DNA of 10,212 nucleotides from Desulfohalobiaceae bacterium (GTDB taxonomy: Bacteria; Desulfobacterota; Desulfovibrionia; Desulfovibrionales; Desulfothermaceae), in NCBI GenBank assembly GCA_036628655.1, contig JAZKRN010000098.1, positions 1 to 10,212 of the forward strand, read 5' to 3'. Shown here piece after piece: positions 1,051 through 6,123 of the stretch. Below the pieces are notes generated by a model. That model made no database searches and was not told the DNA's origin. It saw only the letters and a list, made by a program, of their open reading frames with translations. The position numbers were made by a program, and so were the translations under genes. The number at the start of each line of letters is the position of its first letter. Positions within the stretch are counted from its first letter, which is position 1.

Positions 1051-1757
1051 AAATTGCTGGCACTCAGGGGTATCCTTCTCATCATATGCGTTCTTTGACT
1101 GGAATCGGAGCGGCAAAATCGGAGGAAAAAACGCTGAACTGTGAACGCAGTAGGTTGAATTCCGAGCGGAGACGGAGAACGCAAAAAAGGACCCAATATG
1201 TGCATTAGTAATGTTTATTAAATAGTAAATATTATTATTTAGAATGAAGATTTTTTTGTGATGTCAAGCACGTGTCTCGTCTTACCAAATAAAAACGTGA
1301 TTGGGACAATACTTAAGTTGAAGCGGGAAGAAATACATAAGCTTTTGATCTTGTTGCATTACATATCAATACTGGAGAAAAGAGACAGCGCGTAACTCAA
1401 ACATTAACGTGGGTACTTTTAAAAGTTGGCAGTGTAGGCAATTATAAAGAAAATTTGTGAACAAATTTACTCAAACATGTTTGAGATTGAGATAAGATAA
1501 AGAGATTTTGTTACAAGAATGTATATAACAAATAATTGATGAGCGATGATTTGTACTATTTGTTTGCAATTTTGCTGTATTAATTTGTAAGAGAATTTGC
1601 ATTAAAGATTGTGTCCATATTGCCGATAACCACTGTACGTGAATCTTATTTCCTTGAAGGTGGTTTTGGAAGGCTAGAGCTTCAGAAAAGGATAGGGAAT
1701 GATTTTGTTTGACGCACTTTTTTATCATTTTGTTATGGTAAATTGGAGGACAAAGGG

Positions 1758-1785
1758 TTGACATGATTGTCGACTTGATTATTAT
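1758..1785 (+). promoter_or_regulatory. Sigma70-like promoter candidate inside the AT-rich island (TTGACA-16 nt-TATTAT)
   Basis: TTGACA at 1758-1763, 16-nt spacer, TATTAT at 1780-1785. No convincing ORF downstream, so it may drive a small RNA or be fortuitous in AT-rich DNA. Confidence 0.2.
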
Positions 1786-2286
1786 GAAATTTGTGAGGGG
1801 ATGCATTGCGTTTTGTCGCAAGGGATAAGGCTTTCAATTCTTTCAAAGTTATAGACTTGCAGCTATAGTGCAGCTTTAATATAGACATGGTTTAATTGGA
1901 AACACAACACTCATTAAGTTGCAATGATTGAAAGCGTTTTTCTTTTGGCTGAAGCTGAGATCATACATGTAAAGCTGTTGCACACATGAACGGAACTCAG
2001 GAGTTACTTCATAGTTGAACTGATGAATGTGTATATGTTTTGGTGAAGGAACATATGTGGTTAAGCAGGTTCAATCAAAACTCATTAGAGTGTTCTGTAG
2101 ATCACAGATACTGAATATTTTTTTGCAGACGCATGAGGGTGTAGGAGTTGTTCGGGAATAATCATACAGAGAAAGATGTCGAGCGCCTCATCTTTTGGAA
2201 AACTAAGCTCAAACAGGCGAGGAACTTGAAATGAAAGTGCGTATGCGTTTTTAGGAAACCTCTAAAAATACGTGAAAGGCGCCATT

Positions 2287-2511
2287 ATGTTCACAGGAAC
2301 ATGCCGCATTGTGTGGGAGTGCCCGAGCTGTGGGACAATCTATGGCGGCGTCGTTGAAGGCGGCGTGGTCAAGCTCTGTCAGTGGTGTCCCCATCGCGGT
2401 GTTTGCGATGCAGCTGAGCGGGATGATATCCCCAGAGCGGAGCGGCTGTGTCAGAGCTCCGAATGCATTTTGGCCCAGGTACTGAACGGATACTCTCATG
2501 CAAAGATTTGA
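2287..2511 (+). CDS. Small zinc-ribbon-like protein (two CxxC pairs: CPSCG...17 aa...CQWCP), 74 aa
   Basis: The track ORF 2272-2511 starts at a GTG with no RBS. The in-frame ATG at 2287 has AAAGG 7 nt upstream. The Cys pattern WECPSCG / KLCQWCPH is typical of zinc ribbons. GC-rich codon use like the core genes. Confidence 0.4.
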   Translation: MFTGTCRIVWECPSCGTIYGGVVEGGVVKLCQWCPHRGVCDAAERDDIPRAERLCQSSECILAQVLNGYSHAKI

Positions 2512-2579
2512 CGAATAGCAGCCTGTTGAAAAAGTCCTTATCAGGCAAAGCGTTCAAAAATCTCGTGGGTCAAGCGCGA

Positions 2580-2647
2580 CCCGGCACTCACTTTCGCCCC
2601 CGAAGTTCAATATATTACGAGCAAACATAAAAAAAGTGAGTGCCGGG
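2580..2647. repeat. Perfect 15-bp inverted repeat (CCCGGCACTCACTTT / AAAGTGAGTGCCGGG) separated by a 38-nt AT-rich spacer
   Basis: Arms at 2580-2594 and 2633-2647 read directly. No T-tract follows, so it is not a classical terminator. Possible protein binding site or long RNA hairpin. Confidence 0.55.
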
Positions 2648-3225
2648 CAAGGTCGTAGTTTACCCCGCCTGCCCCGTAGCTCAGCCTTGTGATGCTACCG
2701 GGGTGAAACCTTCTTTTGTTTCACTGGGGCGTAGTGAGCCTCCATGAGAGCTTGAACTTTTAGAAGCAGCGTAGCACGTGTACGATTTTCAACGCCCTGA
2801 TAGGGTGCAGTTGTTTCAGCGCACAGGCTGTATCCGCTCTGGCCAGTATCGAGACGTACTCCTTCGGGTTGATCCGAATGCATTGGCCGCTCCGCAAGGA
2901 CATGCGTGACCGCGATGGCACACTAAGTCCGTAAACAGGTATACGTACGACCACCACCTTTCCGGATAGCCAATCCGGATAATAGCGGCCAAAACGTATT
3001 TCATGCAGGGCCGCAGCGAAGAATGAGCTCCGGAGATTGATTGTTTGAAAACGTATCGCGAAAAGCGAATCACAAGGATTCCTTTGACAATCGGACCACT
3101 TGTACAGCCCTGCCGTTTTTGTGCCCCTGAGCTTGGGCCGTGCCCCTTTTTGGGACGAAAGCTGGCCACGATGGCAGCAATCGGCTCCCAGGAAGGGCTG
3201 ATGAGAAAGCCTGCGCAGGAAATCT

Positions 3226-3259
3226 GGGGGATGCGGTGATCCGTATCCCCCTTTTTTTT
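3226..3259 (+). terminator. Strong Rho-independent terminator
   Basis: GGGGGATGCGG-tgat-CCGTATCCCCC forms an 11-bp stem with one G.U wobble, followed by T8 at 3252-3259. It ends a roughly 700-nt stretch with no convincing CDS. Confidence 0.7.
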
Positions 3260-3307
3260 GTCTGAGGGGCCTTGGCCGGGTAAGCGTTCTTCGTTCCCTG
3301 TTATTGG

Positions 3308-3336
3308 TTTGTCGATTTGGCTTGAAATGGTATACT
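3308..3336 (+). promoter_or_regulatory. Candidate sigma70 promoter for the MucR-family gene with an extended -10 (TGgTATACT)
   Basis: TG at 3328-3329, TATACT at 3331-3336, weak -35 TTTGTC at 3308-3313 with a 17-nt spacer. Implies a 5' UTR of about 135 nt. Confidence 0.3.
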
Positions 3337-3478
3337 CAAAATGAATGAATGTGTACCTCCTCGTCATGGAGACAGCCCACGCAGCGGCGGTTCGATTACG
3401 GGAATCCGCGCGGAATGGAAGCAAAGATTCGGGAGGCGTCATTCATCCATATATCTCTGATCAATAAGGAGGGCAGGC

Positions 3479-3883
3479 ATGGACGAGTACATGAAAGAAT
3501 CCCTTGAGATCGCCAAGGCACAGGCGAAAGTCCGGAATATGACCGAGGACGAGATCGCTTCGCTGGTGCAGAACCTGGCGAACAGCCTCAGGAATCTGGA
3601 GGCGGGCAAGCCGGCAGAAGGATCCAGGCAGCATCAGGAGCCGGCTGTGGATCCCAAGAAGGCTATTCGTGAAAAATCGGTCATCTGCCTGGAGTGCGGT
3701 GCGTCCTTCAAGCTCCTCTCCAAGAAGCATCTCGCCCAGCACGAACTTACTCCGCAGGAGTACAAGGAGAAATGGGGCTTCAAGAGCAATCAGGCCCTTG
3801 TTGCGAAGTCCCTCTCCAGGAAGCGCAGGCAGAAGATGCAGGAGATGGAGCTCTGGAAGCGGCGCGGGGTCGTTAAGGCGTAG
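3479..3883 (+). CDS. mucR: Ros/MucR family zinc-finger transcriptional regulator
   Basis: C-terminal motif ICLECGASFKLLSKKHLAQHELTPQEYKEKWGF matches the Ros/MucR signature (CLECG..FK.LKRHL..H...TP.EYREKW) and is followed by a basic tail. RBS AAGGAGGG lies 6 nt upstream of the ATG. Confidence 0.85.
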   Translation: MDEYMKESLEIAKAQAKVRNMTEDEIASLVQNLANSLRNLEAGKPAEGSRQHQEPAVDPKKAIREKSVICLECGASFKLLSKKHLAQHELTPQEYKEKWGFKSNQALVAKSLSRKRRQKMQEMELWKRRGVVKA

Positions 3884-3977
3884 GTCGGGTGCCCTCTTTC
3901 CTGGAATAAAGGCTTGAAGCGGCGCGGCTTTCTCGGGCCGCAGCTGCAATGCCCCCTCCCTTTTTTTGTGTTTAAAA

Positions 3978-4008
3978 GGCCCCGCGTTGAGCGGGGTCTT
4001 TGCTCTTT
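3978..4008 (+). terminator. Probable intrinsic terminator after the MucR-family gene
   Basis: GGCCCCGC-gttga-GCGGGGTC stem of 8 bp with one G.U, then TTTGCTCTTT. AAAA precedes it, so it could act in both directions. Confidence 0.4.
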
Positions 4009-4144
4009 GGGGCACCTTGTCCCGCCCCTGCCTTTTCTCCACTCGAAACCATTGTGCACGGACGCGGGTGGTTGTCTTGACATATCAAAATTGTTGCGAT
4101 GACGTATGCAGGAACACACGAAACGCCACCCTGCGAAGGAAAGA

Positions 4145-5059
4145 ATGAAAGCGGTAATGCGCAAAGCGATCCACCCAATTCCCCTGCTCGGGATTTGCCT
4201 CCTCGTGCTGCTGCTCGGCTGCGAGGGCGTCAATCTGCGACAGGCCAAGGAGGCCGGCGAGGACGCGGTCAAGGCGGTCACCCTGTCCGAGGAACAGGTC
4301 CGGGAGCTGGCCCGGCGGGCCGCGGAGAGGGCGGACGAGGAGCACGAGCTCGCCCCGCCCGAAAGCAGCTACTCTGGACGCCTCGAGCGCCTGGTCCGGG
4401 AACACGGCGAGGAGGAGGGCCATTCCTACGAATACAGGGTCTATCTCTCCTCCAAGGTGAACGCCTTTGCCATGGCTGACGGCTCCATACGGATCTACAG
4501 CGGGCTGATGGACAAGATGAGCGATCAGGAGCTTCTGTTCGTGCTCGGGCACGAAATGGGGCACGTGGTGGAGAACCACATTATGAAGAAAATGCGGGTG
4601 GCCCTTGCGGGCAGCGCCCTCCGCAAGGGGATCGCCTCCCAGGAGAACGTGATCGGCGAGCTTGCGGAGTCGCAGCTGGGCGGGCTGGTCAACAAGCTCA
4701 TCCAGGCACGGTTCTCCCGGGAGGAGGAAGAGGAAGCGGACCGATACGCTGTGCGCTTCATGCAACAGGAGGGGTACAATCCCCACAAGAGCGTCTCCGC
4801 CCTGAAGAAGCTTGGGGCCATGAGCGCAGGGAGCTCCCTCCTCTCCAGCCACCCCGCCCCGAAGGCGAGGGCCGAGAAGGTGAAGGAGCAGCTCCGCTCC
4901 GGGTTGGAGGACGAGGAGGATACCGGGATCTGGGACACGATTTGGGGACTGTTGCGGACAATCGGTCACTGGGTGGTCGATGCGATCGCCTGGGTGATCG
5001 ATCTGATTCCGGGGGTGGAAATCCCCTCCGAAGATCCCCAAAAGGCGATGGAGGTCTGA
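4145..5059 (+). CDS. M48-family zinc metallopeptidase, lipoprotein (YcaL/LoiP/BepA-like)
   Basis: HEMGH (HExxH) motif, NAFAMADGSIRIYSGLM and a lipobox LLLGC after MKAVMRKAIHPIPLLGICLLVLLLGC. The track ORF begins at 4106, but the ATG at 4145 has GAAGGAAAGA just upstream and yields a proper lipoprotein signal peptide. Confidence 0.8.
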   Translation: MKAVMRKAIHPIPLLGICLLVLLLGCEGVNLRQAKEAGEDAVKAVTLSEEQVRELARRAAERADEEHELAPPESSYSGRLERLVREHGEEEGHSYEYRVYLSSKVNAFAMADGSIRIYSGLMDKMSDQELLFVLGHEMGHVVENHIMKKMRVALAGSALRKGIASQENVIGELAESQLGGLVNKLIQARFSREEEEEADRYAVRFMQQEGYNPHKSVSALKKLGAMSAGSSLLSSHPAPKARAEKVKEQLRSGLEDEEDTGIWDTIWGLLRTIGHWVVDAIAWVIDLIPGVEIPSEDPQKAMEV

Positions 5060-5181
5060 TTGGTCTGTCCGGCGTGCTGGTTTTTTTCTGAAGACCAATG
5101 GGCTCTAACAAACCCGGCTCTTCGTCAACTCGTTGTGTGGTGCATCCGACAGGGCTGTTTACGAACCATTGCTTCCGCTAT

Positions 5182-5493
5182 GGTAACTATTCAGCACCTC
5201 CCTGGATTCAGCCTGAATGTTCGCGGGGTTTTTTGAATCTATCCAGCGTAGACTCTGTTCGATTTTCTTCGCTCGCCACGTGGGGGAAACCCGACCGTGA
5301 AAATGCTCATCATGGACTCAAGCTCATTACTGAAGGTGTTTTGCCGAGCCTTGGAACAAGAGCAGCGAAGGAGAGTCGGGTGGGGGCAGGGATGCCCCCA
5401 CGTGGCGAGCGTTAGAAAATCCAGAGTCGGAGGTTCAAGATTCAAAAAGGCCCCGCGAACATGTCGGTTTCGGAAGATGGTGAATAGTTACCC
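5182..5493. repeat. About 310-bp imperfect inverted duplication (two ~115-bp arms around an ~80-bp centre) in the M48-SprT intergenic region
   Basis: Three nested exact or near-exact inverted blocks. Outer: GGTAACTATTCA 5182-5193 vs 5481-5492. Middle: ATGTTCGCGGGGTTTTTTGAATCT 5217-5240 vs 5435-5462, 2 mismatches. Inner: GACTCTG..GATTTTCT..CGCTCGCCACGTGGGGG 5251-5286 vs 5395-5435. Each arm holds the palindrome CCACGTGG, and CCGCTATG flanks both ends in the same orientation. Confidence 0.6.
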
Positions 5494-5568
5494 GCTATGT
5501 GTCATTTTTCCTCTGTACCCTGTCTTCTGGCCAGCCCATAGCCTCATTTTATCAAAAGTGGAGATCCC

Positions 5569-6123
5569 GTGCTCACCGTCGACTCCGGCATCCCCCACGA
5601 GATCAGGCAGCGCTTCGAGGATGAATACGCCGCGATCCGCTCCCTCGTGCCGGATTCCAAGGCCTTCGACTCCGCGCGCAAGCACGTGTGCTTCAACAAC
5701 CGCTTGCGCACCTCTGCCGGGCGGGCAATCCAGGACCGGAACAACCGGCACTGCTGGCGGATCGAGCTCAATCCCAAATACTATGCGACATACGGCCTGG
5801 AGCGGGTGATCGGGACCTACAGGCACGAGCTCGCCCATGTGGCGGCCTGGGTCTTTTATCGGGAGCCTGGGCACACCAGGAACTTCAAACGGTTCTGCGA
5901 GCTGTTCGGCGGCACGATGAATCCCGACCAGGCCGGGAAGCGGGCATCCGCCAACGCCACAACAGAGTATCTAACCACTCCCCCCAAGTGGCGCTACACT
6001 TGCCCCTCCTGCGGGCTCACTTTTACCAGAAAACGCCGGCTGCCGAATAAGACCATCGAGCGGGCCTGGTGCGTTCAGTGCCGAACACCGGCTCGCAAGC
6101 TTCTGAGGGAGCAGTTGCGGTAG
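5569..6123 (+). CDS. sprT: SprT-like zinc metalloprotease with a C-terminal zinc ribbon
   Basis: HExxH in TYRHELAHVAAW, then GHTRNFKRFCELFGG, and a CPSCG...CVQC C-terminus typical of SprT-family proteins. GTG start at 5569 with GGAG 5 nt upstream. Confidence 0.8.
   Translation: MLTVDSGIPHEIRQRFEDEYAAIRSLVPDSKAFDSARKHVCFNNRLRTSAGRAIQDRNNRHCWRIELNPKYYATYGLERVIGTYRHELAHVAAWVFYREPGHTRNFKRFCELFGGTMNPDQAGKRASANATTEYLTTPPKWRYTCPSCGLTFTRKRRLPNKTIERAWCVQCRTPARKLLREQLR

Follow-up and report, generated by a model that had tools for sequence, protein, structure and literature searches.

A hairpin-rich, gene-free interval between a zinc-ribbon gene and mucR in a Desulfohalobiaceae bacterium resolves into a MITE-like element, a spacer and an intrinsic terminator

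Layout of the Interval and the Relatives Compared

The window analysed in this study is a stretch of 10,212 nt from a Desulfohalobiaceae bacterium (assembly GCA_036628655.1, contig JAZKRN010000098.1), and attention is focused on its interval 2512-3259, which extends from the end of a zinc-ribbon gene (2272..2511, plus strand) to a terminator that precedes mucR (3479..3883, plus strand). The latter encodes a Ros/MucR family regulator recognised by Pfam ROS_MUCR PF05443 at E = 6e-42, and the zinc-ribbon protein comprises 79 aa from a GTG start, or 74 aa from an ATG at 2287, and matched no Pfam family. Because this protein is 78-96% identical across the five other syntenic lineages (L048/49 being counted with L052/53), the zinc-ribbon reading frame is regarded as a real gene. 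An earlier note on the window had placed the end of the zinc-ribbon gene at 2511 and the start of mucR at 3479 with no gene between them, and had proposed the interval as a candidate large non-coding RNA or decayed gene. Both boundaries were confirmed, and the statement that the tract holds no credible coding sequence stands, in that no protein similarity, no Pfam match and no codon-phase pattern was detected. The tract is instead divided into three unrelated parts, namely a mobile element that resembles a miniature inverted-repeat transposable element (MITE; 2519..2799, plus strand), a clade-specific non-coding spacer (2804..3225, plus strand) and an intrinsic terminator (3226..3259, plus strand).

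The succession of zinc-ribbon gene and mucR was compared in six lineages, which are represented by the window, L001, L052/L053 together with L048/L049, L037-L046, L054/L055, and L056-L061. By its MucR homologues, the window was assigned to the Desulfohalobiaceae, in the vicinity of Desulfovermiculus. No existing record held the exact MucR of the window, and the relatives were gathered via MucR homologues, except that L048-L053 were obtained by a metagenome scan with the zinc-ribbon protein.

A MITE-Like Element with Nested Inserts

The element is bordered by a target-site duplication, read from the sequence, whose left copy ATAG (2515..2518) begins 3 nt past the zinc-ribbon stop codon and whose right copy ATAG occupies 2800..2803. 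Its terminal inverted repeats of 14 nt, CAGCCTGTTGAAAA (2519-2532) and TTTTCAACGCCCTG (2786-2799), match at 12/14 positions, and they are accompanied by a sub-terminal repeat, CAGGGCGTTCAAAA; the end sequence of the element is CAGSSYGTTGAAAA. The seven copies aligned (alignment A5) share common termini and differ in their flanks. A search of related loci totalling 450 kb by nhmmer recovered copies (E = 1e-11 to 1e-54) in at least 7 different flanking contexts. Copies in other flanks and orientations include L004 5993-6154, L003 3929-3767, L052/53 2449-2238 and those of the L037 clade (1885-1727), the L056 clade (2534-2722) and L002 (2993-3137). Direct 4-bp flanks were read as ATAG/ATAG in the window, CTAA/CTAA in L003, TTAT/TTAT in L053, and ATAG/TTAG in both L004 and L001.

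Filled and empty sites were found reciprocally at two positions. At the first, just past the zinc-ribbon stop codon, the element is present in the window, L001 and L048/49 and the site is empty in L052/53. The window reads there as stop codon, CGA, ATAG, the 281-nt element, ATAG and GGTGCAG, and L052/L053, from which window 2516-2802 is missing, read as stop codon, GGA, a single 4-mer AAGG and GGTGCAG. At the second, L052/53 carry the element and the window has the empty site, a single TTAT at 960-963. Since terminal repeats, a target duplication, multiple sites and reciprocal filled and empty sites occur together, 2519-2799 is shown to be a MITE-like transposable element with a basic unit of about 170 nt. 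Four of the five features by which MITEs are defined were thus observed, namely a short non-coding body with terminal inverted repeats, the target-site duplication, the multiplicity of sites and the filled and empty sites. No pair of terminal repeats 1-2 kb apart, as expected of a parent insertion sequence (IS), occurred in the loci examined, and a scan of viral contigs for the element's end returned one chance 21-nt match only, in an AT-rich contig.

The extra length of the window copy (281 nt versus about 170 nt) is due to two nested inserts. The first of them is a palindromic mini-element of 68 nt at 2580..2647, with 15-bp perfect arms (CCCGGCACTCACTTT) around a 38-nt loop, which is absent from all other copies of its host element in alignment A5. 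The inverted repeat formed by 2580-2594 and 2633-2647, already pointed out in the earlier note, was verified as a fold of -30.5 kcal/mol (z = -7.4). The second insert, of 36 nt at 2667..2702, carries the hairpin CCCCGTAGC...GCTACCGGGG and a tRNA-like 16-mer, and it is likewise confined to the window copy, since the copies in L049 and L053 lack the insert and retain the flanking sequence on both sides. This hairpin, too, proved real (-18.8 kcal/mol, z = -3.9). Next to them lies a GTGAAAC...GTTTCAC hairpin at 2703..2733, which belongs to a sub-family of the element, as it is found in the L049 and L053 copies and is absent from those of L001, L003, L004 and L037; the stem exists as described, though it is weak (-8.4 kcal/mol, z = -1.9). 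A resemblance to tRNA that had been suggested for 2671-2690 was not borne out, in that ARAGORN predicted 0 genes in the window, Rfam returned no tRNA at E <= 10, and the 16-mer in question lies within the copy-specific insert. All of the hairpins that had suggested a structured RNA are therefore part of the MITE-like element or of its nested inserts.

Hairpins with CCGGCAC...GTGCCGG termini were observed at three places, i.e., window 2580-2647, L048 2860-2922 and L029 105-171, with 63-67 nt between the termini; the full repeat in the window measures 68 nt, and the one in L048/49 occupies another position of a MITE copy. The arms of the window and L029 hairpins are nearly identical (CCGGCACYCACTT) and their loops are unrelated. 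No more than these three were met with in 450 kb, where the terminal 7-mer is not enriched (68 occurrences seen versus 55 expected). These hairpins may represent a family of mini-palindromic elements common to Desulfohalobiaceae and Desulfonatronovibrio, and the MITE-like element with its nested mini-palindromes probably constitutes an undescribed repeat family of the Desulfohalobiaceae.

Evolutionary Rate and Coding Capacity of the Spacer

The spacer of about 420 nt that follows the right ATAG is probably transcribed as part of a 3' untranslated region (3' UTR). Homologous sequence is found only in L001, in L052/53 and, up to 3042, in L048/49. In comparison with L053, 97/412 aligned positions differ (23.5%), and the corresponding value for four-fold degenerate sites in four nearby genes is 73/317 (23.0%), to which the zinc-ribbon gene contributes 9/33, mucR 10/55, the M48 peptidase gene 33/142 and the SprT-like gene 21/87. 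By this yardstick, the spacer is shown to drift at about the neutral rate. The four-fold sites of the window and L001 differ by about 19%.

Stop codon and terminator are separated by 580, 150 and 445 nt in the L037, L054 and L056 clades, respectively, and this DNA bears no detectable similarity to the window or among the three clades. Because four-fold sites already differ by 43% between the window and L037, unrelated spacers are what neutral drift alone would be expected to yield; repeated replacement of the spacer is a conceivable alternative. An apparently conserved island of 19-24 nt at 3020-3044 (AGAATGAGCTYCGGAGATT, with the palindrome CTCCGGAG) was considered and set aside, about 1 such island being expected by chance in the four-lineage alignment on a rough estimate, and the conserved 19-mer gave 0 matches in viral contigs. 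In L049, a clean deletion of 2.1 kb at 4712/4714 has removed the equivalent of window 3043-5182, so that the spacer is left without its 3' half and the terminator, mucR and M48 peptidase gene are gone altogether.

Several lines of evidence bear on whether the tract codes, or once coded, for protein. Insertions and deletions in the spacer between relatives are mostly not multiples of 3. A 208-aa open reading frame (ORF; 2816-3442, minus strand), which had been dismissed as noise in the earlier note, deserves that judgement, as it is broken in L001 into pieces of 34-47 aa and, in a search of 5.8 billion proteins, had no counterpart other than an identical copy of itself. Substitutions in its three codon phases amount to 0.157/0.182/0.133 versus L001 and 0.237/0.224/0.261 versus L053. 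The same flatness was found in the frame of a 64-aa ORF (0.237/0.224/0.259 versus L053), and the M48 peptidase gene, taken as a real-gene control, gave 0.088/0.044/0.214. Since the codon-phase rates are flat, unlike those of the M48 peptidase gene, the spacer is considered non-coding. Moreover, a six-frame Pfam search of the interval returned nothing above noise, and six-frame tblastn against 47 loci revealed no protein-level conservation except at the terminator.

The view that a protein gene decayed here, such as a phage gene once situated 3' of the zinc-ribbon gene, draws on the length of the interval, its G+C content, which resembles that of the neighbouring genes, the openness of the 208-aa frame in the window, and the presence of a 115-aa gene and a DNA polymerase gene behind the zinc-ribbon homologue of the viral contig L050/L062. 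It is nevertheless very improbable, in that Pfam and the tblastn searches of the interval stayed at noise, the 208-aa frame matches only itself and the substitutions lack codon phase; in addition, when all spacers were searched by tblastn with the 115-aa protein and with the primase-helicase and polymerase of the phage, only noise was obtained (E >= 0.017, the best match being to upstream sequence and not to an interval). The suggestion of a decayed gene thus lost its footing for want of six-frame protein similarity, Pfam family, phage-gene remnant and codon-phase pattern alike.

The 64-aa ORF just mentioned starts from TTG (3045-3239, plus strand) and had been offered as the sole coding alternative; the frame exists where it was reported, but its coding function did not survive comparison. 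That it encodes a small protein might be argued from its being open in both the window and L001, and from the identity of 22/33 of its first residues in L053. In L053, however, a 4-nt insertion shifts the frame, so that a 48-aa product with an unrelated tail results and both cysteines are lost; the codon phases versus L053 are flat, no Pfam family is matched, and the TTG is not closely preceded by any visible purine-rich ribosome-binding site. Among 1.84 billion representative proteins, one marginal match was obtained (E = 2.9e-4), to a 589-aa protein in 7 stretches, and a protein-coding role for this frame is scarcely credible.

The Conserved Terminator and the Predicted mucR Promoter

The terminator at 3226..3259 is composed of GGGGGATGCGG-TGAT-CCGTATCCCCC followed by T8, and its 11-bp stem (8 of the 11 pairs being G-C) encloses a 4-nt loop and folds at -23.1 kcal/mol (z = -6.5), which bears out the earlier description of an 11-bp-stem, T8 terminator. 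Nothing else in the interval is conserved throughout the six lineages. In L001, L052/53 and the L037 clade, the stem is unchanged and the loop alone varies (TGAT, TTAT, CATT). In L054/55 and L056, both arms differ with the pairing kept, at -21.1 and -15.2 kcal/mol, so that the folding energies across four lineages read -23.1, -23.8, -21.1 and -15.2 kcal/mol. The terminator is 94-100% identical versus 71-92% for its flanks, and when the L037 clade and L054/55 were compared by blastn, nothing else between stop codon and mucR was matched. From these alignments, the hairpin is shown to be maintained by selection. Its distance from the stop codon is variable, being 150 nt in L054/55, which is an ordinary length for a 3' UTR, about 425 nt in L052/53, about 445 nt in L056, 547 nt in L001, 580 nt in L037 and 715 nt in the window. 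A terminator-pattern scan of metagenomes returned no matches, though JGI contigs obtained otherwise contain the pattern. Because the terminator is conserved everywhere and all around it changes, the transcript of the plus strand that had been proposed to end at 3259 very probably does so.

About 50 nt past the terminator, a promoter for mucR is predicted at 3309..3336 on the plus strand (TTGTCG, a 16-nt spacer and TG-n-TATACT, i.e., an extended -10), and it is the only promoter-like site found in 2000-4000. An extended -10 is located 106-249 nt before the mucR ATG in six of the six lineages; in L056, it lies upstream of a terminator-like hairpin. There (L056 4797-4912), the extended -10-like sequence TGGTAGAAT stands 83 nt upstream of the hairpin, which itself is 90 nt before the mucR ATG, and this arrangement could correspond to a small RNA (sRNA) of about 100 nt or to an attenuator in the mucR leader. 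Between the counterparts of window 3302 and 3309, i.e., between the terminator and the mucR promoter, L052/53 carry an insertion of 245 nt (L053 4725-4968), which is rich in CGGAT / GGATYC repeats and was observed nowhere else in the loci examined.

Search for a Conserved RNA

When the window, L001 and L052/53 were submitted to RNAalifold, 115 plus-strand pairs were predicted, of which 12 have changed on both sides, and these counts exceed those of shuffles. This pair-count signal was dropped in favour of an unbiased column-shuffle test, in which alignment columns are shuffled within classes of equal conservation and then refolded, and by which no plus-strand signal was obtained. With three lineages, the plus and minus strands gave z of -0.8 and -3.43 (0/100 shuffles), respectively, for 2803-3225, +0.05 and -2.19 for 3003-3225, and -0.33 and -2.66 for 3100-3225; with four lineages, 2803-3042 gave -0.74 and -2.62 (1/200). 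The 12 control tests (six flanking windows of 420 nt on both strands, three lineages) ranged from +0.04 to -2.62. No conserved plus-strand structure in the spacer is therefore indicated by this test, the z of -0.8 for 2803-3225 lying within the range of the controls. The whole window matched nothing in Rfam at gathering score, and at E <= 10 only MIR4380 (16.5 bits) and PrrB_RsmZ (13.4 bits versus a gathering score of 44) appeared, both at the level of noise. The idea of a CsrA sponge of the CsrB/RsmZ type was discarded, as all three AGGA motifs of the window (around 3075, 3191 and 3217) are lost in L053. No sigma-70-like promoter was detected inside 2804-3225 of the window or of L001 and one weak candidate was detected in L053, in a scan restricted to that promoter type; sigma-54 and sigma-70 sites read by eye in the spacer were rejected for not being conserved between lineages.

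The proposal of a large non-coding RNA did not withstand these results, in that its hairpins belong to a mobile element that is absent from this site in L052/L053, and the rest of the tract changes at the neutral rate, shows z = -0.8 on the plus strand and has no Rfam family; the comparison of structure across homologous regions that the earlier note had called for gave that same absence of plus-strand signal. A more restricted version holds that the last 180-450 nt before the terminator are a fast-evolving plus-strand sRNA, either cut from the zinc-ribbon 3' UTR or transcribed from a weak promoter of its own. Many sRNAs evolve fast, and the 3' end of an sRNA typically looks like the strong, conserved terminator found here; the segment 3003-3225 is about 89% identical to L001, one clean compensatory change (T3110C with A3176G in L053) falls in a long-range helix, a promoter-like TTGCAA-17-AATTAT is located 159 nt before the terminator of L053, and the extended -10 of L056 lies 83 nt before its terminator-like hairpin. 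Nevertheless, the divergence of the spacer from L053 equals the rate of four-fold sites, the plus-strand structure of 3003-3225 and 3100-3225 does not rise above shuffled alignments, and the promoter-like site of L053 is kept in neither the window nor L001. Furthermore, the spacers of L037, L054 and L056 have no block in common with that of the window, the RsmZ match is weak and its GGA motifs are lost in L053, and in L049 both the terminator and the 3' half of the spacer have been lost by deletion. Such an sRNA is accordingly held to be unlikely, though still worth considering.

Another reading takes the spacer for a structured minus-strand RNA, which would be antisense to the 3' UTR of the zinc-ribbon gene and divergent from mucR. 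It would account for the minus-strand scores of 2803-3225 and 2803-3042 at alignments where the plus strand reaches only -0.8 and -0.74 and where the control tests go to -2.62 at most. It is improbable all the same, because neither a promoter nor a terminator was found on the minus strand, 5 pairs are changed on both sides versus 12 on the plus strand, the excess over the controls is small and derives from three lineages, the divergence is neutral and no Rfam match was obtained on either strand. The excess of minus-strand structure is a weak one. A broader and speculative form of both ideas, hinted at by the arrangement of promoter and hairpin in L056, is that the variable stretch before the terminator specifies a regulatory RNA of the zinc-ribbon/mucR pair, be it a 3'-UTR sRNA or a minus-strand RNA, which evolves rapidly and exists in clade-specific versions; it, too, is thought unlikely.

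Proposed Origin of the Interval

Taken together, the interval is best explained, with a probability of about 0.6, as ordinary intergenic DNA that is neither a large RNA gene nor a dead gene, i.e., a non-genic stretch between the zinc-ribbon stop codon and the terminator of that gene, made up of a MITE-like element, a drifting spacer and a terminator that probably insulates the next promoter. As the comparisons show, a MITE-like element of about 170 nt landed 3 nt past the zinc-ribbon stop codon, duplicating ATAG, and later gained the 68-nt palindromic mini-element and the 36-nt insert. The adjoining 2804-3225 changes as fast as synonymous sites, its place being taken by unrelated DNA of 150-580 nt in other clades. 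The zinc-ribbon mRNA may carry the whole tract as a long 3' UTR and would end at 3259, where the terminator is presumably selected both for ending that transcript and for keeping transcription from running on into the mucR promoter, which lies 50 nt further on. The segment before the terminator would then tolerate insertions and drift, as a landing zone on which no function depends; being dispensable, the DNA from stop codon to terminator would therefore have been filled with the MITE, its nested mini-elements and a drifting spacer.

Several observations weigh against this explanation. On the plus strand, 12 pairs are changed on both sides, a count that is biased because the structure was derived from the same alignment, and the minus-strand z of -3.43 lies beyond all 12 control tests. 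The window and L001 agree at about 89% of positions in 3003-3225 versus about 78% in 2804-3002, which could reflect mild constraint near the terminator; this is unseen in the comparison with L053, and the value represents at most a mild local excess of conservation. Four-fold sites are perhaps under some selection themselves, so that "neutral" is to be read as an upper estimate of the freedom of the spacer, and the spacer comparison comprises three or four independent lineages. Finally, the passage of the zinc-ribbon mRNA as far as 3259 is a prediction from sequence.

A lesson for annotation may be drawn from this locus, as a gene-free, hairpin-rich tract closed by a textbook terminator mimics an RNA gene and yet resolves into a mobile element, a neutral spacer and a terminator. 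The MITE-like element and the mini-palindromes could also be used as marks of recent genome change in hypersaline sulfate reducers.

Comparison with Known Systems

The element is reminiscent of well-known bacterial MITEs, namely the Correia elements of Neisseria, the ERIC/IRU sequences of enterobacteria and the RUP of pneumococci, in its small size, its lack of coding sequence, its terminal inverted repeats and its brief, TA-centred duplication. Like Correia, ERIC and RUP, it is multi-copy in unrelated intergenic sites and varies in presence between close relatives, and it is situated between a stop codon and a terminator, a position in which co-transcription is probable and long RNA hairpins could be formed. 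Its sequence, on the other hand, is unrelated to theirs, the window copy hosts nested palindromic inserts, and no parent IS was found among the loci examined. Correia and RUP elements duplicate a 2-bp TA, in contrast to the 4 bp (ATAG, TTAG, CTAA, TTAT) seen here; members of the IS5 group typically generate a 4-bp duplication centred on TA.

The CCGGCAC hairpins resemble REP/BIME sequences in the general sense, as they are small imperfect palindromes of non-coding DNA with conserved stems and variable loops; they are longer than the classic REPs of 35-40 nt, and three examples were counted in 450 kb. The terminator is similar to other insulating intrinsic terminators in having a G+C-rich 11-bp stem, a tetraloop and U8, and in ending 50 nt before the -35 of the next promoter; unlike usual intrinsic terminators, that of the window is unusually far (715 nt) from the presumed stop codon, within a range of 150-715 nt.

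A long 3' UTR closed by a strong terminator could release a stable 3' fragment, as is generally known for the 3'-UTR-derived sRNAs CpxQ, SroC and DapZ. Enterobacterial sRNAs of this origin have conserved seed regions; unlike in CpxQ, SroC and DapZ, nothing upstream of the hairpin is conserved here beyond the neutral rate, and neither a processing site nor an internal promoter is evident.

Flanking Genes and Further Observations

A homologue of the zinc-ribbon protein, 76% identical, is encoded at 1470-1700 of L050 (= L062, IMG/VR UViG_3300001136_000044), a contig classed as viral, within a T7-like replication module that consists of a 480-aa primase-helicase, the zinc ribbon, a 115-aa ORF and a 626-aa family-A DNA polymerase. 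Because this homologue sits in the replication module of a viral contig, the zinc-ribbon gene of the window is probably of phage origin. Blastn of the interval 2512-3259 against plasmid and phage collections gave no matches.

Paralogues of mucR are abundant in these metagenome-assembled genomes, in which 36 loci (L001-L036) were counted, several per assembly, and a MITE copy is found near some of them, for example 6 nt past the gene in L002 and about 700 nt past it in L003/L004. At the present locus, a phage-type zinc-ribbon gene is thus paired with one of many mucR paralogues, with a strictly kept terminator between the two, and this pairing may be of interest to students of MucR-type silencers outside the alpha-proteobacteria.

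Directly upstream of the zinc-ribbon gene, about 1 kb of the window (1200-2200) has a G+C content of 30-37%, versus 50-65% elsewhere. This AT-rich stretch contains no convincing ORF and is 75-83% conserved in L001, L048/49 and L052/53. In alpha-proteobacteria, proteins of the MucR family have been described as silencers of AT-rich DNA (PMC7710501).

Downstream, the order mucR, M48 peptidase and SprT-like zinc protein (window 4106-6123) is kept in L053 and L054. In the L037 clade, mucR is followed by a DeoR regulator and oxidases, and in the L056 clade by a second, convergent mucR.

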